Below the pieces are notes generated by a model that worked only from the letters and a program-made list of their open reading frames with translations, had not been told where the DNA came from and did no database searches. A DNA stretch of 64,000 nucleotides from Microcoleus sp. (lineage in GTDB: Bacteria; Cyanobacteriota; Cyanobacteriia; Cyanobacteriales; Microcoleaceae). The stretch lies in the NCBI GenBank assembly GCA_042408215.1, contig JAYFMW010000030.1:64001-128000 (forward strand), written 5' to 3'. This document shows positions 26,716 to 39,807 of the stretch, in pieces. The position numbers and the translations under genes are program-made. Each line of letters opens with the position of its first letter. The first letter of the stretch is position 1.

Positions 26716-26857
26716 GGGAAGAAGGGATGTTTTCATAAGGCCTTCAATTCATCAAGTTATGGTTTAATTGTGGGGAGTGGGGCAATAAGGGAGAAGCCGC
26801 ACTACAGCTCTAAGCGAGAAAGTTCTACTCCCTCACCACTTCCCACTCCCCACTCCC
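26671..26857. repeat. STRR-type heptamer arrays (GGGGAGT then ACTCCCC), left flank
   Basis: G-rich tandem units at 26671-26719 and 26770-26783; C-rich units at 26824-26857. Confidence 0.85.
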
Positions 26858-27231
26858 TAATTCTTGCTCTGAAGAGAACGGATGAGAGCGCGAAGCAACC
26901 GTCCAACAGAGTCGCACTGATTCAAAATAGGGCTAACTGCCTGAACTGTTGTCAATTCAACCCTAGCTGATAATAGTAGGTGAGTTTCCAACTCCTTAAG
27001 AGACCCCTGTGCTACTCGAAGAAACTGAATGTATTCGGCTCGATATTCTCGACCATATCCCTCAGCAATATTTGCTGGGATAGAGGCTGCCGATCTCCGA
27101 ATTTGTGAAATCATTCCATAAATTTCCTCTCTCGGGAAACTTTTGGTAATTTTATAAGAAGCTTCTGCTAGATTCATTCCTTCTTTCCAGACTTCTAAAT
27201 CCCGATAAGAGCGGATTGGTGAATTTGTCAT
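26857..27231 (-). CDS. Four-helix bundle protein (23S rRNA IVP-like, TIGR02436-type)
   Basis: YRDLEVWK...FPREEIYGMISQIRRSAASIPANIAEG...GSLKELETHL. Confidence 0.92.
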   Translation of the reverse strand: MTNSPIRSYRDLEVWKEGMNLAEASYKITKSFPREEIYGMISQIRRSAASIPANIAEGYGREYRAEYIQFLRVAQGSLKELETHLLLSARVELTTVQAVSPILNQCDSVGRLLRALIRSLQSKN

Positions 27232-27244
27232 CTTAATTGAGAAA

Positions 27245-27490
<246 letters not shown>

Positions 27491-28493: not shown

Positions 28494-28527
28494 GAAAGCG
28501 CTGCCGAATTAACTTCGGCAGCCTTTC
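28494..28527. terminator. Bidirectional terminator-like hairpin
   Basis: GCTGCCGAA-TTAAC-TTCGGCAGC between convergent genes. Confidence 0.65.
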
Positions 28528-28559
28528 ATTAACCGCTTGGATCGGTATTTTAGCGAGAA

Positions 28560-28793
28560 TTAATCACGGGCTAACCACCAAATGAATGCTCCAACAGCGA
28601 CTACAGGTACTGCAACTGCAATAACGGGTGCGATCGCGACTGATGTTACTGTTCCTGCCGCTGTGGTCACAGTAGCAATACCAACGCCACCAGTAGTAGA
28701 AGCAATTCCAGTAGCAGTTACACCAGTAGCGGTGGCTAATTTGGCGGCAATTAAAGCACCGCCGGCAGTAGTGGCTAAACCATTATTGTTCAT
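28560..28793 (-). CDS. Small Ala/Gly/Thr-rich membrane protein (77 aa)
   Basis: AAGGAG RBS; hydrophobic; C-terminal VPVVAVGAFIWW paralogous to 29239. Confidence 0.75.
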   Translation of the reverse strand: MNNNGLATTAGGALIAAKLATATGVTATGIASTTGGVGIATVTTAAGTVTSVAIAPVIAVAVPVVAVGAFIWWLARD

Positions 28794-28872
28794 AATTGAA
28801 GGACTCCTTTGAAGTTGAAGGTAATAAGGCGATCGAAAAAGAAAATTATCCCTTGATAATTCTGCCTTTCTG

Positions 28873-29106
28873 CTAATTGACTTTGCTAACTTTTGCGATA
28901 TCCGACTTTTTCCCATTTCTCGGATTATCTATTGTGCGCCAGGAATCGTCATTGAAATCGATTAGGACTTCTTGACCTACATCTACCCCAAGACTGTCGG
29001 GATACCAGACAATATAGCGATCGCCACTCTTGGCTTGAGCAAGTATTTTATAATTGGGATACTCAAGTCCGAAAGACTGTAAAACTTTAAACGATTCTGT
29101 TCTCAT
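28873..29106 (-). CDS. Small soluble beta-rich hypothetical protein (77 aa)
   Basis: AGGAG RBS; clean ORF in the microprotein cluster. Confidence 0.7.
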   Translation of the reverse strand: MRTESFKVLQSFGLEYPNYKILAQAKSGDRYIVWYPDSLGVDVGQEVLIDFNDDSWRTIDNPRNGKKSDIAKVSKVN

Positions 29107-29238
29107 TCTATGCTCCTGTTGTCAGATATATCTTTGTTAATTAGTAAGTAGTTGCCGAAGTCGAAGCAAATAATTTGAAAATATTCGGCAGCTACTTGAG
29201 TTTTAGCACCCATAAAATTAGCCGACACACCCTATATG

Positions 29239-29496
29239 TCAATCTTCTTGAGAAGCAGCCCACCAAATTAGTCCGCCGATCGCCACCAGTGGAATAGCCA
29301 CTACTGCAATAGTTGCGAGGGTAGAACCCATCGTGGCAATGGGAGCAAATTTGGAAGCCAAGAGTGTACCACTAGCCAGCCCGTTGCCTAAGTTAGAAAA
29401 ATCATGCTTATGTGGCGCGTGGTAGTGGTAGTGAGGAACGTGGTGATGGGGAAGGTGATGTGATAGTTTTAGGCTTTCTGATTTTTCGTGTGTCAT
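29239..29496 (-). CDS. His-rich membrane microprotein (85 aa)
   Basis: AGGAGG RBS; HHLPHHHVPHYHYH then GNGLASGTLLASK...IPLVAIGGLIWW. Confidence 0.78.
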   Translation of the reverse strand: MTHEKSESLKLSHHLPHHHVPHYHYHAPHKHDFSNLGNGLASGTLLASKFAPIATMGSTLATIAVVAIPLVAIGGLIWWAASQED

Positions 29497-29654
29497 ATTT
29501 CCTCCTGATTTAGTTCAGTTAGTTGTTCCCCTTCAAGAAACCGGGTTTCTGTTGTTAGACAAGCGGATATTTAGTTGCTCCCTTTAAGAAACCCGGTTTC
29601 TGAAATCAATGGCAAAGTATGGCGAAATTAGCCATCTCTAATGAGGGAAATATA

Positions 29655-29882
29655 CTATGATTTCCCATTAGTTAATGAGCTTATTACTGCCGTTGAAATC
29701 GCACCCATTGGATCCACACCAGTCACAGCTAAAATCAGTCCTACAGTTAAGATGCTGAGATTAATAATCCCGTTGGCATTTTTAACAGGGGAGTGCGGTA
29801 AACCGTGAGGATGAGGAATATGTAAGTGATGATGACCCGAACAGTGGTTTCCATGCACAGCGCAATAGTGGTTGTTTAACAT
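29655..29882 (-). CDS. His/Cys-rich membrane microprotein (75 aa)
   Basis: GAGG RBS; His-rich N-terminus plus hydrophobic helix. Confidence 0.72.
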   Translation of the reverse strand: MLNNHYCAVHGNHCSGHHHLHIPHPHGLPHSPVKNANGIINLSILTVGLILAVTGVDPMGAISTAVISSLTNGKS

Positions 29883-29972
29883 GAGTTTCCTCTTGATGTT
29901 GTTGAGTATTTTTGAGCTGTTTGAGGGTTGATAATGGCTATCAACAGGTGTTGATAGCCAATCAACTATTGG

Positions 29973-30131
29973 CTAAGAAAACCAGTTTAAAAAGAAAACT
30001 GCTCCTTCAACCAGCCAGTCGATCAAAAACGTATCCTGGTCCCCTATCGAATTCATATCTGTGTGATGAATTTGATGGGCGTGAGGCTCGTGAAAGTGAA
30101 AATTGTGTTCGCGGTCGAATTGTCCGTGCAT
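29973..30131 (-). CDS. His-rich microprotein (52 aa, not in the ORF track)
   Basis: Hand translation MHGQFDREHNFHFHEPHAHQIHHTDMNSIGDQDTFLIDWLVEGAVFFLNWFS; GGAG RBS. Confidence 0.7.
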   Translation of the reverse strand: MHGQFDREHNFHFHEPHAHQIHHTDMNSIGDQDTFLIDWLVEGAVFFLNWFS

Positions 30132-30277
30132 TTATTTATCTCCGTTTTGGATTAACTGAACTTTGATAGCTCAAGCCTAGAGCATTAACAATTTTTCTGT
30201 CAACCGTTGAAGATCAATTAATATCCAATTTCTTGAAAGTCTTAATTGATAAGACTTTCCAGGTTTTGCCTGATATT

Positions 30278-30420
30278 CAAATTGAATTCAGTTGTATTCA
30301 ACTTGAATGCAACTGAATTCAATTTGTATTCAATTGAATCTTCTAAATTAGTTCAAACTTTTGATCCACGAATTGATAATAGTTCTAAGCTTTTTTCCAA
30401 AATTCAACTTGAATTCAATT
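30278..30420. promoter_or_regulatory. 49-bp near-perfect palindrome plus additional TTCAAnTTGAA sites in a divergent intergenic region; candidate operator
   Basis: 24-bp arms 30278-30301 and 30303-30326 with 1 mismatch; motif recurs at 30401-30420. Confidence 0.6.
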
Positions 30421-30526
30421 AATATCGTTCTGCAAATTTACTAAATTAGAAGGAGAGTGCAAGAAGCTCACTCATCTTTGAGTTTCCCTCTTATTTCTAA
30501 TCGGCTTAAATAGCTAGGAGAAAAAT

Positions 30527-30709
30527 ATGTCTCATACAGATCCACACACCCAAGTTTACCAACAAGCTTTTTCTGTACCCACGAATATGGGTGCTATGAT
30601 TGGAACCGCTATAGGTGGCCCTATTGGTGGTACGGTTGGGGGCTTACTGGGAGCCGTAGTAGGCTTGTCTATTGCTTGGCATATCGGCTCTCACAATTCA
30701 CATCATTAA
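30527..30709 (+). CDS. Glycine-zipper microprotein with His-containing ends (60 aa)
   Basis: AGGAG RBS; GAMIGTAIGGPIGGTVGGLLGAVVG. Confidence 0.78.
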   Translation: MSHTDPHTQVYQQAFSVPTNMGAMIGTAIGGPIGGTVGGLLGAVVGLSIAWHIGSHNSHH

Positions 30710-30854
30710 TCTGATGAGTTGAGATTGTCGGACTTGATTGCTCGTAAGGGTGTGTTATCCTCATCTTAGATGATAGAAGGTAGCGCACTCTTATATAATC
30801 AAGTAAAGTGTTTTACCTGTCGCAAACACAAAAACTGAAAGGAATTTTATTGCT

Positions 30855-31838
30855 ATGTCTACTCCGACTGAAGGTAAGTGGTCTGAATTCGCTAAAGCTT
30901 TCAAAGATTTTTACAGTCGTAAAAAATTCAATTCAGCTTTTGAACTGGCTAAATCTAGTGGTCTTGAAAACTCTTATCTTAGTAAAATGAAGAACAATCC
31001 CATCTTGAACCCAACTGAAGCAACTATAGAAAAATTAGCTGAAGCTTTCGTTAAAAAAAATCAGTCTAATATAGAAAATGAAAAAAGAGAGATTAGAGAG
31101 TTTTTTCAAAAATGGAGAGAAAAACAATTATATAGGGAAAACCCTTCTTCTGAAATTAAATCCTGGGACTTAACGTTTATTGAAGTTGACACAAATAATT
31201 TATCAGATTTTCAAGAAAATCTCTTACCTGAGATCATGGCTAAACTTGAAAACGTGGGCAAAGGTATGATTATTGTTAAATACGTTAAAAAGGGTAGTAT
31301 TATTTTAGGCTTGGAAAGTTCTGATGAATCCTATCAATACATTTTAAACTGTTATCAACGAGGAGAATTAAGTGAGTTGTTGGGTTTTACAGTTTCAGAT
31401 TTACAACCTCAAGTAAGTCTCAATCAATGGTTTGACAATGCTTTTACCGCAGGTTGGCAAACTGCAACAGAATTATTAAATCCCCAACAGTTGCAAGCTA
31501 CCGCACGGACGCAAAAACTTGAACGGGGAAAATTAATTGATTTGCGCGCAGATTTGTTGAGTCATTCTGTCGTCTTACTGGTTAATTTAACCCGCGATAA
31601 TGATGATTCCTCTACTGTAGAAATAACTTTGCGGGTTTATCCAACTGGCGATGATGTCTATTTACCTCCTAGTTTAAAGCTGCTGGTTTTAAGTGAAGAC
31701 AATGAAGTGTTTGAAGAAGTGACAGCTAGAAGTGCTGATGTTTTCATGCGATGTCAATTTGAAGGGGAAGTAGGAGAAGAATTTTCAGTACAATTAGTTT
31801 TAGGGGATGTGGTAGTAACAGAAGATTTTGTCATTTAA
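30855..31838 (+). CDS. XRE-like HTH + middle domain + DUF1822 protein
   Basis: ELAKSSGLENSYLSKM...PTEATIEKLA; VSLNQWF...GWQ...VYLPPSLKLLVL...TEDFVI typical of DUF1822. Confidence 0.8.
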   Translation: MSTPTEGKWSEFAKAFKDFYSRKKFNSAFELAKSSGLENSYLSKMKNNPILNPTEATIEKLAEAFVKKNQSNIENEKREIREFFQKWREKQLYRENPSSEIKSWDLTFIEVDTNNLSDFQENLLPEIMAKLENVGKGMIIVKYVKKGSIILGLESSDESYQYILNCYQRGELSELLGFTVSDLQPQVSLNQWFDNAFTAGWQTATELLNPQQLQATARTQKLERGKLIDLRADLLSHSVVLLVNLTRDNDDSSTVEITLRVYPTGDDVYLPPSLKLLVLSEDNEVFEEVTARSADVFMRCQFEGEVGEEFSVQLVLGDVVVTEDFVI

Positions 31839-32114
31839 TCCAGATAGCTGTTGGGCATTTTTTACAATTTGTAAAGCTAGATACCCCTTGTATTATGAAT
31901 GTGGTATAATTTTCCTTGAAAAATATGATACAGGGCTTACGCACACCGAAGGCAGAAACCGAGGGCAGAAACCGGGTTTCTTCGTAGATATCTAGTTGGG
32001 AAACGAAGGATTTTCAGAGAAACCCGGTTTCTTTGCATAACTCCTAATGATAAATTTCAAACAAATTCAATATTGCTCCAGTTGGTAACAGAATTCATAA
32101 AATTAGGAGGGTTT

Positions 32115-35100
32115 ATGGAAAAGTTAGTTACTCTCAATATTAGTGGGGAATTTGACAAGGGTTTTGTCGTACAAGCAGAAGTGCGGGAAGATGGAGGAAC
32201 CACAAATTTTCAAGTCAATTTGGCGATCGCCGCTGCACCAGGGAAGTTACCCCCGCATCCTGAACTATTAGAACAGTACCGTCATTGGCAAAGCTTATAC
32301 AATAATTTAGAGGAATTTTTTCCGAATCGGTTAAAGAAGATAAATAATTCTACGAATGCTTCCGAGGATGAAGCTTTTAGCGCTTGTCGAAAAGCGGCTA
32401 AGTTATTAACAAAAACCCTGAATGATTGGTTGCTGCGATCGCCCGAGTTTAAACCCATAGAAAATTTACTGCGCGATCGTTTACAAGACTCTACTCACAC
32501 CAGAATTTTATTAGCTACAGAAAATCATTGGTTGCGGCGTTTACCTTGGTGTGAATGGAATTTATTGGAGCATATTCCTAATGCAGAAGTCGTTTTAGCT
32601 TCTCCTAAATTTAAACAAGTTAAAAGTTCAGGAAATTCAGAGAAAAAAGAGAAAGTCAAAATTTTAGTCATTTTGGGAGATAATGCGGGAACTGATGCGG
32701 ATGAAACTGTGATTCAGCAATTAATTCCAGATGCTGAAATTTGTTGGTTAAAAGAACCTCAACGGCGCGATCTAGATGAACCTTTATGGAAAAAAAGATG
32801 GGATATTTTATTTTTTGCAGGTCATGGAAAGACAGAGAATGATGGAAGTATTGGCAAGATTCAAATTAATTCTCAAGATACATTGACTATTGATGAAATT
32901 AAAAATCATCTCAAAAAAGCTATAAATAATGGTTTAAAGTTAGCGATTTTTAATGCTTGTGATGGGCTAGGGATTGCCTATCAATTAGCAGAAGGGGAAG
33001 ATTTACATTTGCCGCAAGTGATTGTGATGCGGGAGATTTTACCTGTAGCTTTAGCACCTAAGTTTCTCCAATATTTCCTGGAAGCTTATACTCACGGTTT
33101 ATCCCTATCTACCGCAATCCGTGACTGTCGAAAACAGTTACAAATCTTAGAAAGAGATGTTCCCTGCGTCAGTTGGTTGCCTGTTTTATGCCAAAATCCT
33201 GCCGAAATTCCGCTGCGTTGGCACGATTTAGTAATTCCCCCTAATCCTTATCAGGGTTTATCGGCTTTTCAGGAGAAAGATGCAGCCTTATTTTTTGGGC
33301 GAGAAACTTTTACCAATCAGCTTGTCAAAGTTGTAGAAACTAAAAAACTGGTAGCTGTTATTGGTGCTTCTGGAAGTGGGAAATCTTCCGTAGTATTGGC
33401 AGGTTTAATTCCTAGTTTGCGTCAGCAAGAAAACTGGTTAATTGCTAGTTTGCGCCCAGAATCTACTCCTTTTGATAATTTGGCGAAAGCGCTACTGTCA
33501 CCTGTGGTGCAATTAGAAACGGGTAAAAGTGAGGGAGTTACGGAGGTTAATGCCGATGAAATTAACCAACTGGCGACAGATTTGCAAGAAGGGAATCGCA
33601 CTTTATCTGATGTGGTAAAAAGCCTCGGTAGCAGTCGGCGTTTTCTGTTAGTAATTGACCAATTTGAGGAAATTTACACTTACCCGAATCAGAAAAATCG
33701 GCAATTTTTAGATTGTTTGTTGGATGCGGTGCAAAAGTTTTCTGCCTTCAGGTTGGTGATTACTCTGCGGGCTGATTTTTTGGGGCAGGCAATAGAATAT
33801 AATCCTTTTCGGGAACAGTTAGACAAATGGAAACCGGAATTTATTGGCGGGATGGCGAGAACCGAATTGCAAGCAGCAATTGAGGAACCTGCTAAGAAAC
33901 GAAATGTCTATCTGGAAGCGGGATTGACAGAACATATTCTCAATGATGTGGGTGATGAACAGGGTAATTTACCATTGTTGGAATTTGCGCTTACCCAACT
34001 TTGGAAAGTGCAGGAAAATGGTTTGCTGAATCGTCTGAAATATGATGAAATTGGTGGTGTAGAAAAGGCTCTTTGCCGACACGCAGAAGGGGTATATGAT
34101 GCGCTGAAAGAGGGGGATAAGGAACGGACAAAGCAGATTTTTATGAAGTTGGTGTCGCCGGGAGAAGGGACGGAATACACGCGCCAACTGGCGACTCGCG
34201 CTGAGGTGGGGGAAGAAAATTGGGATTTGATAACGCATTTGGCGACGGCGCGTTTGGTGGTGAGTAATCGCAATGAAATGACTGAGATAGAAACAGTGGA
34301 AATTGTGCATGAGGCTTTGATTAAAGCATGGCCTGATTTGAGGAAATGGATTGAGGAAAATGATGCTTTTTTGAGGTGGAAAAAGCGGTTAAAGGTGGCG
34401 TTTCTGGAATGGGAAAGGAATGAGAATAAGGAGGGTTATTTGTTGCAAGGCGCACCCTTGGGAGAGGCGGAGGGGTATTTGTTGCAACGGTTGGAGGATG
34501 TAAGTAAGGCGGAACGGGTATTTATTCAGTTGGGGTTGGGGTTGCGCGATCGCAATCGTCGCCGTACTATTTTAGGACTTACGAGTGGTTTATTAGCTGT
34601 TTCTATTTTTGCTGTGGGGGCGGTGTGGCAATGGCAACGGGCTGAATTTCAAACAGTACAAGTAGACAAACAACGACAAGAAGCTGACAAGCAGCGTATA
34701 AATGCGGAGTTAATAGCATCTAGTCTTCTGTCAGGTAATCTTTTTGACTCTAATAAACCACTTGAAGCACTGATAGAAGCGATTAAAGCGGGAAGACAAC
34801 TACAACAGACGGTTGTTGATGTAAAACCGGATATACGAAATCGAATTGTTCTCGCTTTACAGCAGACGGTCTATGGAGTGCGAGAGCGTAACCGTTTAGA
34901 AGGCAATAACAATGGTAACATCTTTTTGTTAAATTCTATTAAGACTGCGGCTTTCAGTCCTGACGGTAAAATAATAGTCACGATTGGAGATCAGATCAAC
35001 ATTTGGAACCGTGCAGGTACTTGGCTCAAGACATTTGATCGGGATGCTTCTTCTAATAATATTTCCTTTCATAAAGCTAGTTTTAGTCCTGACGGTAAGA

Positions 35101-38100
35101 TGATTGCTGTGGGTGTAACTATCAATCCTAACAAAACTGATCCTTTAAACTTTGCTGGTATCATCAATGCAGTACAAATCTGGAGTATTGATGGCAAATT
35201 ACTGAAAACCATCAAAGCGCACAGCAATTTTGTAAATGCCGTAAAGTTTAGTCCCGACGGCAAGATAATTGCCTCATCTAGTTCTGATAAAACTGTCAAA
35301 CTTTGGAGTCTCGACGGTCGTCTATTAAGAACGCTTCAACATAGCGGTATTGTTAAGGATATGAGTTTTAGTCCCGATGGTCAGACTATCATAGCTGCTG
35401 ATTATGAAACTGTCAAACTTTGGGGTATAGATGGTAGAGAAATCAAAAATCTTCAACAACATAGCAGTTGGATCGGTAGCGTAAGTTTTAGCCCTGACGG
35501 TCAGATGATTGCTTCGATGAGTCCTCCTGATGGTGTAGTTAAACTTTGGAGTATCAACGGCACAGAAATCAAAACTCTTAAAGCACATGACTCCAGTTTT
35601 TTCGGTAGTCTGAGCTTCAGTCCAGATGGTAAGACGATAGCTTCTACTGGTGATACAATTGTCAAGTTATGGAGCCGTGAAGGTACTTTACTCGACACTC
35701 TGGAAGGACATAATTTTTCAATAGGAGATGTAAGCTTCAGTCCAGACGGTAAGACGATCGCTTCAGGTAGTCTTGATGGGACTGCCAAACTATGGAACCG
35801 TGAAACTATCAAACCTCCAACTATTTCCTCTAGTGCTAATAGCTTTAGTTTTAGCCCAGATAGCAAAACAATTGCTTTGGCAAAAGGTAAAGATGTGAAA
35901 CTATACAGCCACGATGGTACTTTACTGAAAACTATAGAAGCCCATACCAATACTAAGGATGTCATCTTTAGTCCAGATGGGAAAACTATCGTTTCAATTG
36001 GTGGTTTTAATGCTGACAGAGAAACTCTTAGGTCTTTGGTTTCCTCAAAGCCTGGGACATTGAATAATAAAGAGGGGATTTTGGATTTTGGTATGCAGCA
36101 GTTTGAAAATCAGAAGTCCCGCGAAAGGACTATCAAGCTATGGAGCCTTGATGGTCGCTTGCTAAAAACCATTGATGCGACAAATCAGTATATTCAGCAC
36201 CAAGGACATAAATCAGCATTAACGAGCGTAATTTTCGGTCAAGACGGTAAGACAATTGCTTCAAGCAGTTGGGATAATAGTGCAAAGGTTTGGAGCCTTG
36301 AGGGTAGTTACGGTACTTTTGTTGGAAGTTTGGAATATAACGATTTAGTTTGGAGTATTAGTGAGAGCCGTGACGGTAAATCTATCATTGTTGCTCACGG
36401 AAATGAGATAACACTGCTCAGGAATGATATCAAAAAAACTTCAGTATTAAAGGGGCATAGTAATACTATATTTCGTGTCATTTTCAGTCCTGATGGACAG
36501 ACAATTGCTTCAGCTAGTTTAGATGGAACAGTTAAACTATGGAATTTAGATGGCAAAGAACTCAAAACCTTGAAGCATGATAATGGAGTCACCGATGTCA
36601 GTTTTAGCCCCGATGGTAAAACGATTTTAACCGCAGGTATGGATGGCTTAAGACTCTGGAATTTGTCAGGACAGCGCCTATCTCAATTTGGAGGAAGAGC
36701 CCAAAAGTCCGAAGAATTTAGTGGTGTAGGTTTCAATATTGAATTCAATGAAAATACAAAAATTTTAACTGTTGTAAAGGTACTTGAAAATTCACCCGCC
36801 AAAAAAGCAGGTATAAAAGTAGGCGACCAAATTTTAGCAATTGATGGAAATCCCACTACAGACATGAGTCTTGACGAAAACATAAATCTTCTTCGAGGTG
36901 AGGCAGGCACAAAGGTTGTTTTGAAGATTATTCGGCAAGGAAATGATGCTTTTGATATAACCATTACCAGAGATATAATTAAAACCACTGAGAGTGGAGA
37001 TATTCGTTATACAACTGCAAAATTCAGTCCTGATGGTCAGATAATTGCTGCGGGTAGTGGGTTTGAGAAAGGGACAATTAAACTCTGGAGTCGTGATGGT
37101 CGCCTACTTAAAACTCTCACAGGACACAATGATCTGGTTTGGGACGTAAGTTTTAGTCCTAACGGTAAAATACTTGCCTCTGCCAGTCAAGACAAAACAG
37201 TAAAACTCTGGAGTCTTGACGATGGTAAAGAACTCAAAACCTTAAATGGGCATAGCGATCATGTTTTTGCTGTTAGTTTCAGCCCTGATGGACAAATGTT
37301 GGCATCAGCAGGTAAAGATGGTATTGTCAGAGTCTGGAGAATTGATGGCACTTTAGTTAAACCGCTATTGGGTAATCATCGTACTTTCATTATGGGCAAC
37401 CCCAATAGCATCAGTTTTAGTCCTGATGGTAAGACATTAGCTTTAGCCAATGAAGAGGAAGTTCAACTATGGAACCCTCAAGGTACTTTACTCAAAATTT
37501 CCAGATCCGGTATTAGGGCGTGGTTTGCTCCCGATGGAAATGTACTTACTTCAGGTGGTGATAGTGATGGACATGGTTGGAATGTTAACAAGGTGAGTTT
37601 TAGTCCTGATGGTAAGATACTTGCTTCAGCCAGTTCTAACAACGAGATAAAACTCTGGAACCCTGATGGTTCTTTACTCAAAACCCTTGAAGGACATACT
37701 AACGGAGTTGAGGACGTGAGTTTTAGTCCCGATGGCAAGATTTTAGCCTCAGCCAGCAAGGATCAGACCGTGAGACTCTGGAACCTTAAGGATAAATCGC
37801 ATAAAATCCTGCGCGGACACAACAGTTTTGTCAATAGCGTGAGTTTCAGCAGTAGTGGTTTGTTGGCTTCTGGCAGTATGGATAAAACGCTTAAACTTTG
37901 GCTTAGTGATGGTACTTTACTCAAAACTTTCAATATGGATTCGTTCACTATGGCAAAGTTCAGTCCTGACGGAAAAACTCTAGCTGTTGGTTCTGACAAA
38001 GTGACTTTGTGGAATTTCGATCTTGATGATCTGATGGTACGGGGTTGCGATTGGGCGCGTGACTATCTGAAAACTAACCCCAATGTGAAGGAGAGCGATC

Positions 38101-38135
38101 GCGCTCTTTGTGACGGAATTAATCAAAGCAAATAA
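32115..38135 (+). CDS. CHAT protease + STAND NTPase (nSTAND1-like) + TM + WD40 repeats with an inserted PDZ domain
   Basis: AGGAGG RBS; FFAGHG and IFNACDGL catalytic dyad; NPYQGL..F...FFGRE, GASGSGKSS, IDQFEE, LPLLEFAL, VHEAL; many SFSPDG WD repeats; PDZ at ~36710-36980. Confidence 0.92.
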   Translation: MEKLVTLNISGEFDKGFVVQAEVREDGGTTNFQVNLAIAAAPGKLPPHPELLEQYRHWQSLYNNLEEFFPNRLKKINNSTNASEDEAFSACRKAAKLLTKTLNDWLLRSPEFKPIENLLRDRLQDSTHTRILLATENHWLRRLPWCEWNLLEHIPNAEVVLASPKFKQVKSSGNSEKKEKVKILVILGDNAGTDADETVIQQLIPDAEICWLKEPQRRDLDEPLWKKRWDILFFAGHGKTENDGSIGKIQINSQDTLTIDEIKNHLKKAINNGLKLAIFNACDGLGIAYQLAEGEDLHLPQVIVMREILPVALAPKFLQYFLEAYTHGLSLSTAIRDCRKQLQILERDVPCVSWLPVLCQNPAEIPLRWHDLVIPPNPYQGLSAFQEKDAALFFGRETFTNQLVKVVETKKLVAVIGASGSGKSSVVLAGLIPSLRQQENWLIASLRPESTPFDNLAKALLSPVVQLETGKSEGVTEVNADEINQLATDLQEGNRTLSDVVKSLGSSRRFLLVIDQFEEIYTYPNQKNRQFLDCLLDAVQKFSAFRLVITLRADFLGQAIEYNPFREQLDKWKPEFIGGMARTELQAAIEEPAKKRNVYLEAGLTEHILNDVGDEQGNLPLLEFALTQLWKVQENGLLNRLKYDEIGGVEKALCRHAEGVYDALKEGDKERTKQIFMKLVSPGEGTEYTRQLATRAEVGEENWDLITHLATARLVVSNRNEMTEIETVEIVHEALIKAWPDLRKWIEENDAFLRWKKRLKVAFLEWERNENKEGYLLQGAPLGEAEGYLLQRLEDVSKAERVFIQLGLGLRDRNRRRTILGLTSGLLAVSIFAVGAVWQWQRAEFQTVQVDKQRQEADKQRINAELIASSLLSGNLFDSNKPLEALIEAIKAGRQLQQTVVDVKPDIRNRIVLALQQTVYGVRERNRLEGNNNGNIFLLNSIKTAAFSPDGKIIVTIGDQINIWNRAGTWLKTFDRDASSNNISFHKASFSPDGKMIAVGVTINPNKTDPLNFAGIINAVQIWSIDGKLLKTIKAHSNFVNAVKFSPDGKIIASSSSDKTVKLWSLDGRLLRTLQHSGIVKDMSFSPDGQTIIAADYETVKLWGIDGREIKNLQQHSSWIGSVSFSPDGQMIASMSPPDGVVKLWSINGTEIKTLKAHDSSFFGSLSFSPDGKTIASTGDTIVKLWSREGTLLDTLEGHNFSIGDVSFSPDGKTIASGSLDGTAKLWNRETIKPPTISSSANSFSFSPDSKTIALAKGKDVKLYSHDGTLLKTIEAHTNTKDVIFSPDGKTIVSIGGFNADRETLRSLVSSKPGTLNNKEGILDFGMQQFENQKSRERTIKLWSLDGRLLKTIDATNQYIQHQGHKSALTSVIFGQDGKTIASSSWDNSAKVWSLEGSYGTFVGSLEYNDLVWSISESRDGKSIIVAHGNEITLLRNDIKKTSVLKGHSNTIFRVIFSPDGQTIASASLDGTVKLWNLDGKELKTLKHDNGVTDVSFSPDGKTILTAGMDGLRLWNLSGQRLSQFGGRAQKSEEFSGVGFNIEFNENTKILTVVKVLENSPAKKAGIKVGDQILAIDGNPTTDMSLDENINLLRGEAGTKVVLKIIRQGNDAFDITITRDIIKTTESGDIRYTTAKFSPDGQIIAAGSGFEKGTIKLWSRDGRLLKTLTGHNDLVWDVSFSPNGKILASASQDKTVKLWSLDDGKELKTLNGHSDHVFAVSFSPDGQMLASAGKDGIVRVWRIDGTLVKPLLGNHRTFIMGNPNSISFSPDGKTLALANEEEVQLWNPQGTLLKISRSGIRAWFAPDGNVLTSGGDSDGHGWNVNKVSFSPDGKILASASSNNEIKLWNPDGSLLKTLEGHTNGVEDVSFSPDGKILASASKDQTVRLWNLKDKSHKILRGHNSFVNSVSFSSSGLLASGSMDKTLKLWLSDGTLLKTFNMDSFTMAKFSPDGKTLAVGSDKVTLWNFDLDDLMVRGCDWARDYLKTNPNVKESDRALCDGINQSK

Positions 38136-38305: not shown

Positions 38306-39807
38306 CTGGAGTTTAGACTAAAAAAGAGAGAACGGTGGCAAAAGAAGAACTAGAGCCACCGTTAAGGAGAGAATGAGGGTGAAAAATAAAACCCATCCAC
38401 TCCCTAAATGAACAGTGAACGATTAAAGGACTTTCGTCAAGCAGCATACGAGTTATTGGTGCGAGCGAAGGATGCAACATTCGAGCTGATAGATGCAGTG
38501 ATGACCACGCCCGAATGCGTCATGTTTAGCGGAATTTTCGCGAGCGTCCGTTATTCAGTCGTCAATGGTCAAGCATATACGAAGCCTTACAAGACAGTAG
38601 GCCAGACCGGAGAAAACTAATGGAGTTGTATATTAAGCAATTAGAGCAGGAAGCACCTGCAATGGAACATATGTTAGTAGCAATCGACCATACCGCATGG
38701 GGGAGACCAGATGCTAAAACATTAAAAGACAGAACCCATGAATATCAGGGGGGCGTAATTATTGGACAAGGATACAGCACAATTGCGTGGATACCCGAAG
38801 CAGAAGGAAGTTGGGCACTACCGTTGCTGCACGAACGGATTAGCAGTGCACAATCCCCAATACAAAAAGCGGCAACACAACTGAAGCTGGTCTGCCAACA
38901 GAGCGTCAATCCAGTATTAGCAGTTTTAGACGCCCGAATATGGCAATGCCAGTTGGGTACTAGCGATAGCAGATATTGAAGCTGATTGTTTAATGAGAGT
39001 CCGAAGCAATGCCTGCTTGTGGTCAGCACCACCAGCCTATAGTGGTCGCGGCAGACCACGGAAACACGGGTCCAAAATCAAGCTCAACGACCCAACCACA
39101 TGGCTCGAAGCGGATACTGTGATTGAAATTGACGAACATCCGCAGTTGGGACAAGTCCGAGTTAGGCAATGGCTTGACTTACATTTTTATCGTGCTGCAG
39201 GACATTCGTGTCAATTTAATCCTTGTGGAAAGAATGAATCTCATGTCAAGCGGTCAGCCGTTTCCACCCTTGTGGTTGGCTTGGGTCGGAGAGCGCACTC
39301 TACCCAAGCGAAACTGTGCCGGTTTAAGTATTTACGACGTTTTGGAGTGGATCATTGGTATAGATTTGCTAAGCAACGATTACATTGGACATTACCTAAC
39401 TTAAGAACTCCCGAACAATCAGAGCGGTGGAGCGATTTAATGCCGTTGATGAGTTGGCAACTCTGGCTGGCTAAGGACTTAGTGGTCGAGAATCGACTGC
39501 CTTGGCAATCTGAAGCGTATCAATTTAACTCCTGGACGTGTTGCCCAATCAATGTTGTCGATTTTAGTTGACATTGGTACTCCGGCTCAACTGCCTAAAC
39601 ATAGGGGAAAATCCCCTGGTTGGGAAAAAGGAAAGGCACGTACTAAAGCACCGTACTATCCCACTGTTAAAAAACGGGTTTCTCGACGCAAAAAATCTTC
39701 AAAATTAGCTGTTTAATCTTCTACCTCTTGAGTTGTTGAGTAACAGCTTGCCTTCTAGTAAAAGGCAGCTACTTTTAGCTGCGGCCATTGTTTAGTCTAA
39801 ACTCCAG
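38306..39807 (+). mobile_element. IS with DDE transposase (IS701/IS4-like, NF041680-type), multiply frameshifted
   Basis: TIR CTGGAGTTTAGACTAAA; 7-bp TSD TAATTTA (38299-38305, 39808-39814); fragments 38408-39714 homologous to 57714-59021. Confidence 0.88.

Follow-up and report, generated by a model that had tools for sequence, protein, structure and literature searches.

Within a 64,000-nucleotide stretch of Microcoleus sp. DNA (the window; positions 64001-128000 of contig JAYFMW010000030.1 in assembly GCA_042408215.1, or G000:C30:64001-128000 in our numbering of the whole 7.36 Mb genome), we have analysed a locus at 28560..38135 in which six small genes, s1 to s6, diverge about a repeat array next to a regulator gene and a CHAT-STAND-WD40 gene. 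Five of the small genes (s1–s5) read leftward (− strand) and s6 reads rightward (+ strand). The reading that we favour, with modest confidence, is that a receptor-protease would cut the regulator and so act through an operator array on a swappable small-gene cassette, in a non-lethal envelope or danger response. The initial annotation of this DNA had already proposed that the protease cuts the regulator, that the regulator reads the repeat and that the cassette is the output. This wiring is now supported at the level of sequence comparison: the repeat motif varies with the helix-turn-helix (HTH) head of the regulator, the cassette genes co-occur with the regulator, and the predicted cleavage site varies with likely S1 residues of the protease.

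The 49-bp palindrome previously noticed between the divergent genes (30278-30326) is real, 46 of its 49 positions being equal to the reverse complement, and is better described as an array of 10-bp units. Six copies with at most one mismatch start at 30282, 30292, 30303, 30313, 30324 and 30409. The first five (30278..30333) are spaced by 10–11 bp and the sixth, a perfect copy of the motif (30409..30418), lies upstream of s6; both positions are likely operators. The unit is self-complementary and is spaced by one helical turn. Shuffled sequences contain 0.15 copies on average and none of 300 reaches six, and the array is the sole cluster of at least four copies within 150 bp in the genome. Two other clusters of the loosely matched motif in the genome were rejected, one as a tandem repeat of unrelated sequence and the other as an AT-rich stretch.

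With no more than one mismatch, the unit is found in all eight intergenic regions preceding this clade of HTH and in none of the 18 preceding other HTH heads or none. Loci in Planktothrix, Crocosphaera and Prochloron share it though their spacers are otherwise unalignable with that of the window; linkage by itself could bring a spacer along with its head but would not preserve the motif alone. Taken singly, the unit is not significant at L072 (P 0.13) or L066 (P 0.07). A second HTH head has a repeat of its own, defined after the fact, in 3/3 loci and in 0/25 others. At locus L064, s2, s3, the DUF1822 C-terminal part and an 88% identical CHAT are kept while the HTH head and the repeat are both exchanged, and one run holds the window form and the L064 form together (joint 29519 to 31198). 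We conclude that the palindrome is an operator-like array that follows the HTH head and is probably bound by it.

Scanning the genome contigs with an alignment of the regulator gave 75 loci, of which 18 have fused HTH-TRADD-N-DUF1822C regulators, classed from open reading frame maps with Pfam confirmation for 2 of the 18 and for a paralog on contig C6; the other 57 are mostly a sigma factor with full DUF1822. Every one of the 18 fused regulators has divergent genes opposite it. Clear homologs of s1, s2, s3, s5 or s6 are present at 11 of these 18 loci and at none of the 57 others, and the suspected association of the small genes with HTH-DUF1822 and CHAT-STAND genes is thus found. For all but one of 15 s1 loci, an NB-ARC, NACHT, nSTAND1, CHAT or DUF1822 gene is found no more than about 3 kb away; the remaining one is near an AAA_35 gene. 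Similarly, 11 of 12 s2 loci stand beside, or in an operon facing, such a gene, and the twelfth faces a LuxR-type HTH gene; the genome baseline for lying within 3 kb of a match to these families is 5.4%. A locus from another family (L052) is ordered in the same way and includes s6, s1 and an s5-like gene. CHAT is found within the fetched 7 kb for 12 of the 18 fused regulators, and the CHATs beside them form one clade (SH-aLRT 100); in Okeania and Dapis it lies 1–3 kb further on, behind XisH/XisI-like genes. A fixed six-gene system was considered and rejected, the members being shuffled between loci and drawn from a larger pool, in which secreted s2-like proteins and EcsC-like, AAA and GTPase genes also occur.

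Other arrangements of the same genes were also seen. Three loci (L022, L023 and L024) are deletion derivatives: in G014 and G008 the regulator is lost and s1 stands directly opposite the CHAT gene, and in G060 an s4-s2 fusion lies beside a CHAT fragment. A hotspot beside tuf-rpsJ (G000:C28:269027-272995, which is L068; also L029, L031, L032 and L038) has an HTH-NB-ARC-WD40 gene opposite a variable cassette of s1 paralog, EcsC-like gene, DO-GTPase1 and s2 remnant, ending in a lipase-RTX gene. The sister cassette at G000:C6:140997-144331 (L067), L021 and L027 comprises small membrane proteins, a 190-residue protein and an AAA ATPase with an IetA-like PADLOC match (E 3.5e-16), and the regulators opposite have other HTH heads. 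Remnants of s1 at L030:7713-8606 and L054:4726-5539 stand opposite a gene of 126-130 residues with an Asn/Gln-rich tail, followed by nSTAND1-WD40, which we take to resemble the Bell-domain amyloid-signalling pairs. At L051:1702-3724, an XRE HTH fused to a GHMP-kinase domain has its own repeated upstream motif and converges on s4-s3-s2, with a 57-residue gene divergent from it.

The regulator (30855..31838, + strand) has 327 residues, in which domain searches and a structure model place an XRE-like HTH, TRADD-N and the C-terminal part of DUF1822. The HTH and DUF1822 named in the initial annotation are both present, the former weak (E 0.006) and the latter as its C-terminal half. TRADD-like_N (PF20694), absent from that annotation, scores 32.4 bits against a cut-off of 23.7 (E 8e-8), lies between the two other domains and has the conserved GS turn (S148). 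The DUF1822 part is modelled as short helices, a loop and an Ig-like beta-sandwich. A fold search with TRADD-N and this part returned generic ferredoxin-like and Ig-like matches only, and one for likeness to Csx30 gave generic Ig-like matches (best Z 7.4), with Csx30 not among the matches listed. PADLOC does not match the regulator. Its HTH clade was found in none of 400 genomes of the class and in 2 of 78 other genomes of the genus that were searched; the C6 paralog faces a different divergent operon.

A hydrophobic-Arg-small motif lies in the variable loop before the Ig domain in 59 of the 68 DUF1822 proteins that were aligned, out of 77 at hand; the remaining loops have one more Arg match by eye, Trp in three, Phe in three and nothing in two. 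Among the 53 paired CHATs, 47 are Arg-type enzymes, in which 93 columns are at least 90% conserved, and only seven of these columns change in both aromatic groups: L65, R72, A157, G192, D196, E214 and A235. D196 follows the first strand (beta-1) and A235 lies two residues before the catalytic His. The S1 residues of the clan CD peptidases metacaspase and gingipain are the alpha-1 Asp and an L3 residue (PMC4357240). By analogy of position, D196 and A235 are likely S1 residues, and where the loop Arg becomes Trp or Phe, the adjoining protease loses the likely S1 Asp. The HetF CHAT cuts PatU3 after a Tyr-Arg pair, between R117 and S118 (Tyr-Arg/Ser) (PMC9457339). On these comparisons, CHAT probably cuts the regulator. 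Since the window protein is Arg-type, the cut is predicted to fall after R218 (codon 31506..31508, + strand), the putative P1 residue from the loop motif, and would remove the Ig domain and leave HTH-TRADD-N.

The candidate protease is the 2006-residue product of 32115..38135 (+ strand), with an EACC2-like region and CHAT (D196, A235, H237, C282), nSTAND1, a membrane helix at 819-837 and WD40 propellers carrying a PDZ insert at about 1530-1625. The claim of a STAND gene with an intact CHAT His-Cys dyad holds: CHAT scores 42.1 bits against a cut-off of 24, nSTAND1 and WD40 are confirmed, and the catalytic dyad (His-Gly and Cys, H237/C282) is invariant in 46/46 homologs. These homologs align over a conserved 150-residue region before CHAT, in the place of EACC2, for which the libraries hold no model; a search by sequence with the CHAT profile found no solved relative. 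The membrane helix, and the PDZ domain, which is closest to those of C-terminal processing peptidases, had been overlooked. A basic stretch and then a hydrophobic helix lie between STAND and the propellers in 11 of 13 clade members, and by the positive-inside rule CHAT and STAND are therefore likely cytoplasmic and the WD40/PDZ sensor outside the cytoplasm. Being likely extracytoplasmic, the sensor differs from the cytoplasmic NLRs of the Avs type. With WD40/PDZ predicted outside, a cue from the envelope or the cell surface would be a likelier trigger than a phage protein in the cytoplasm. The first 828 residues gave only a weak P-loop match in PADLOC (mad3, E 2e-4), and NCBIfam NF045509, applied as a test for HetF, scored 22.9 bits against a cut-off of 1200.

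The six small genes, hitherto unannotated, are real and under purifying selection. All of the open reading frames reported earlier, of 52–85 residues, are present with AGGA/GGAG ribosome-binding motifs, and the ratio of non-synonymous to synonymous substitution rates (dN/dS, Nei-Gojobori, against the window) is 0.03–0.44 in all 19 computable pairs of 21, the other two being saturated. The genes are s1 (28560..28793, −; 77 residues, Gly/Ala/Thr-rich with a hydrophobic C-terminal helix; dN/dS 0.18-0.40 in six pairs), s2 (28873..29106, −; 77 residues; 0.03-0.14 in six pairs, one saturated), s3 (29239..29496, −; 85 residues, a His-rich N-terminus and a hydrophobic C-terminal helix; 0.36-0.44), s4 (29655..29882, −; 75 residues, a His/Cys-rich N-terminus and a hydrophobic helix; 0.15 over 37 codons), s5 (29973..30131, −; 52 residues, His-rich and acidic with a weakly hydrophobic C-terminus, at the head of the putative leftward operon; 0.27 against L021) and s6 (30527..30709, +; 60 residues, glycine-zipper-like with a His tip and sub-threshold Gly-zipper matches; 0.35-0.42). 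Four are His-rich or His-tipped, as described before, with 11, 10, 8 and 6 His in s3, s4, s5 and s6, and none in s1 and s2. Five had been called hydrophobic or Gly-zipper proteins; from the best 19-residue hydropathy values, s1 (2.56), s3 (2.39), s4 (2.14) and s6 (1.67) are clearly so, s5 (1.22) is marginal and s2 (0.67) is globular. Between s1 and s3, likeness is confined to the C-terminal 45 residues (38%, E 3e-4).

Homologs of s1 comprise seven proteins, and eight clusters of 63–105 residues without a fused form; s3 has 11 homologs (78-95% identity), s4 has five (83-91%), s5 has one in L021, and those of s6 are in L052 and L071. The homologs bearing names belong to Microcoleus. Among 79 genomes of the genus, s1 is carried by 7, s2 by 12, s3 by 2 and s6 by 1; a single query with s6 found no match in the 78 other genomes of the genus, and s3 was found in 0/300 genomes of the order that were searched. 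Pfam and NCBIfam give no match above cut-off to any of the six, and PADLOC gives no match at all. In a test for class II double-glycine bacteriocins, s6 scored 13.6 bits with Bacteriocin_IIc (cut-off 27.1), s1 had no match, and no exporter was seen among the open reading frames at 24-44 kb of the window.

The most conserved member of the cassette is s2, which with s1 is also the most widespread. Its predicted structure (pLDDT 94.8) is a small beta-barrel closest to PmrD (Z 8.3, root-mean-square deviation 2.4, 70 of 77 residues aligned) and then to IraM (Z 6.7), both of which are connector proteins; an ESM Atlas lead scored 0.86. For s1, ESM Atlas gave unnamed clusters only. The Z of 8.3, at 14% identity, is near the level reachable by a merely common arrangement; the PmrD profile PF11183 did not match s2 at E up to 1, and Foldseek returned nothing at E 0.001. 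As modelled, s2 is a small soluble barrel and not a membrane peptide, and the outputs are thus not membrane peptides throughout.

Metatranscriptome assemblies of close relatives include one contig (X5) that spans 28517-30156, s5 through s1, contigs from two studies that end at 30155-30156, and separate contigs that cover s6; contigs spanning the cassette are present in RNA libraries of four studies. The contigs hint weakly at a five-gene leftward operon plus a separate s6 message, and no more strongly because they show neither strand nor level, come from other strains and include one (X2) that starts at 30433, within the spacer. Two runs of unrecorded type bridge the gap between s5-s1 and s6. 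In several RNA runs the operator region is covered thinly or not at all, a hole that in itself proves nothing. A sigma-70 scan of the sequence was at chance level (10 against 10.2).

In the proposed mechanism, the predicted one-pass membrane receptor would sense a signal outside the cytoplasm through WD40/PDZ, and STAND-linked activation of the cytoplasmic CHAT protease would follow. The protease would cut the neighbouring regulator after R218, and the cut would alter HTH binding or activity on the 10-bp array and change transcription of s5-s1 and s6, whose products would serve the non-lethal envelope or danger response. That cleavage induces the cassette, and does not silence it, appears fairly probable, by analogy with sigma-type loci and with STAND-HTH activators facing the same cassette genes; derepression would be equally compatible with an XRE-like head. 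The weakest step is the last, and a non-lethal membrane or envelope role of the products falls just short of an even chance. Such a role is favoured over suicide because of the connector-like fold of s2, the secreted members of sister cassettes and the presence of the cassette in RNA libraries.

A number of observations weigh against this mechanism. The HTH adjoins the intergenic region, so that part of its covariation with the motif is co-inheritance, and the motif was defined on this window itself. Between the five-copy array and the apparent leftward start are 125-175 bp, a long distance for a simple switch, and the Pfam score of the HTH is under the cut-off. The shift of site and pocket comprises two clades only and is possibly one event, the fork being open in the quick tree used for the CHATs. 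Six of the 18 fused regulators have no whole CHAT in the fetched DNA (four on short contigs, one with a fragment and one with none), s1 is also present at loci that have lost the regulator (L022, L023) and co-directionally behind DUF1822 genes (L034, L053), and s4-s3-s2 occurs with no core gene in view on a 3.9 kb contig (L051). Many of the loci are kin (L074/L075, L085/L092, L076-L084), and the counts therefore overstate their independence. For the function of the products, the only basis is hydropathy, one match of fold and the presence of RNA.

The same wiring might instead end in an abortive output, pore-forming or depolarising peptides killing the triggered cell and protecting the filament from phage or invaders. 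The four hydrophobic or Gly-zipper peptides would suit this, as would the patchy, defence-like carriage within the genus; related protease-STAND modules release pore formers (EACC1, Pepco; PMC12642450), and TRADD-N systems have been proposed to counter invaders (PMC8195603). We nevertheless regard it as unlikely: PADLOC recognises neither the six small proteins nor the regulator, the RNA contigs of four studies are less expected for tightly silenced toxins, the most conserved member is the soluble PmrD/IraM-like barrel, and the sensor probably sits outside the cytoplasm.

Decidedly unlikely, in our view, is that the HTH and repeat control the cassette alone or only autoregulate, with CHAT-STAND acting elsewhere or on itself and the association arising from module shuffling at insertion hotspots. 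The concerted shift of the conserved Arg loop with D196/A235 requires a link between substrate and enzyme, and both the single clade of CHATs beside fused regulators and their presence within 7 kb of 12 of these 18 speak for the same link, against which stand cassette genes opposite HTH-NB-ARC and LuxR-type genes without CHAT (L025, L026, L027, L038, L057), the reuse of two insertion sites (after holA and after an icd-GST cluster) and the autoproteolysis proposed by Kaur 2021 (PMC8195603). The 6–11 His of s3, s4, s5 and s6, which are kept in homologs, might also make the cassette a metal-handling unit of membrane-tethered chelators under the same regulator. This is very improbable, with no His in the two most widespread members, many sister cassettes lacking a His-rich gene, and no metal transporter or metal-sensor family in the locus.

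Protease-gated transcription, PDZ sensing outside the membrane and STAND-driven regulators at arrayed sites are familiar from Csx29-Csx30-sigma, CapH/CapP, DegS-RseA and MalT/AfsR, and the present locus differs from Csx29-Csx30-sigma and CapH/CapP in having no CRISPR or CBASS link. To call it a new system, as the initial annotation did, was an overstatement, as the two-gene core is already in Kaur 2021 (PMC8195603) and its source data. There, TRADD-N genes precede EACC2-caspase genes, HTH+TRADD-N+'TPRs' is listed before EACC2+CASPASE+STAND, and the source data include OJJ27191.1, of 327 residues, with the HTH+TRADD-N+DUF1822 architecture. Those systems share the gene order of our locus and have a variable STAND/PDZ/propeller C-terminus in the downstream gene; the DUF1822 part is labelled TPR, whereas our model gives an Ig-like beta-sandwich. 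Autopeptidase activation ending in transcription is proposed with no targets named, and the available portion of that paper describes no operator, divergent cassette or cut site. The literature searched, which covered neither subscription papers nor bioRxiv supplements, yielded no publication dealing with the cassette, the operator or the cut site; the core is already described, and the cassette link, the head-specific array and the covarying cut site were not found in print.

Loci with an ECF-like sigma factor, full-length DUF1822 and EACC2-CHAT (PMC8195603) share the DUF1822 C-terminal domain, the Arg loop motif and a homologous CHAT; here an HTH-TRADD-N head replaces the sigma factor and the N-terminal half of DUF1822. 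HetF/PatU3 of Anabaena (PMC9457339) is likewise a membrane-linked cyanobacterial CHAT cutting a regulator at aromatic-Arg/Ser, but HetF is without STAND or propeller, and its substrate and process differ. The protease-effector modules of Avs and bacterial NLRs (EACC1, Pepco; PMC12642450) also fuse a STAND sensor to a caspase-like protease beside the substrate gene; their substrates are themselves toxins, whereas here a transcription factor is the predicted substrate and a membrane helix separates the repeat domain from the rest.

More widely, filamentous cyanobacteria may have a modular surface-sensing pathway: single-pass receptors of the STAND-CHAT type would each cut a transcription factor of their own at a coded site, swappable HTH heads would travel with their own operators, and a shared pool of uncharacterised microproteins would act along the filament as signals or as effectors of a danger response. 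With Arg, Trp and Phe as separate channels, each fitted to its protease pocket, paralogous pathways would stay insulated, and the whole would be a bacterial parallel to receptor-caspase-transcription factor-peptide signalling; we consider this extension somewhat unlikely. EACC2-CHAT/DUF1822 loci are common in filamentous cyanobacteria, and the papers found report no tested substrate, target or output. For all three the present locus offers exact predictions: cleavage after R218, the 10-bp unit as operator, and the six genes as regulon. The Arg/Trp/Phe site variants already provide the material for testing a swap of specificity and could perhaps serve as orthogonal parts for protease switches, and six unannotated microprotein families gain a context. 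With a WD40/PDZ sensor that likely faces outward, some NLR-like proteins may monitor the envelope or neighbours and respond through transcription.

The locus is inserted immediately after the holA-like gene, and the same site in relatives holds related cassettes (L065, L066) or other accessory genes (L028); among the loci, this site and the one after the icd-GST cluster are reused. A bidirectional terminator-like hairpin lies between holA and s1 (28500..28522), where the match to a relative's RNA contig stops at 28517. An RNA hairpin follows s6 (30746..30792, + strand; -22 kcal/mol) beside the ends of s6 RNA contigs at 30749 and 30754, and L052 and L071 have hairpins of different sequence at the same place. 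The palindromic repeat pair at 29535..29601, also at 31966-32032 and 38278, is a common dispersed repeat of the genome and not specific to the system. Further upstream, between the dnaX-like and holA-like genes, a four-helix-bundle gene (26857-27318; 23S_rRNA_IVP, weakly bAvd-like) that is not there in L028, L065 or L066 is flanked by inverted arrays of a 7-bp repeat. Immediately after the STAND gene, a transposase-like gene occupies several frames (38408-39716).

The genome has 7 DUF1822 and 33 CHAT matches. Of 29 STAND-like genes on many of its contigs, 20 have a divergent gene as their nearest upstream neighbour. Upstream of G000:C30:190849, an HTH-NB-ARC gene stands opposite a 69-residue peptide, a radical-SAM-like gene and a 614-residue gene, presumably resembling a cluster for a ribosomally synthesised and post-translationally modified peptide (RiPP). 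Eleven STAND-like genes with one common N-terminal head, which reads as HTH-like, are all divergent (11/11) and face diverse, mostly unannotated operons; they may be one-component regulators, each with its own operon.

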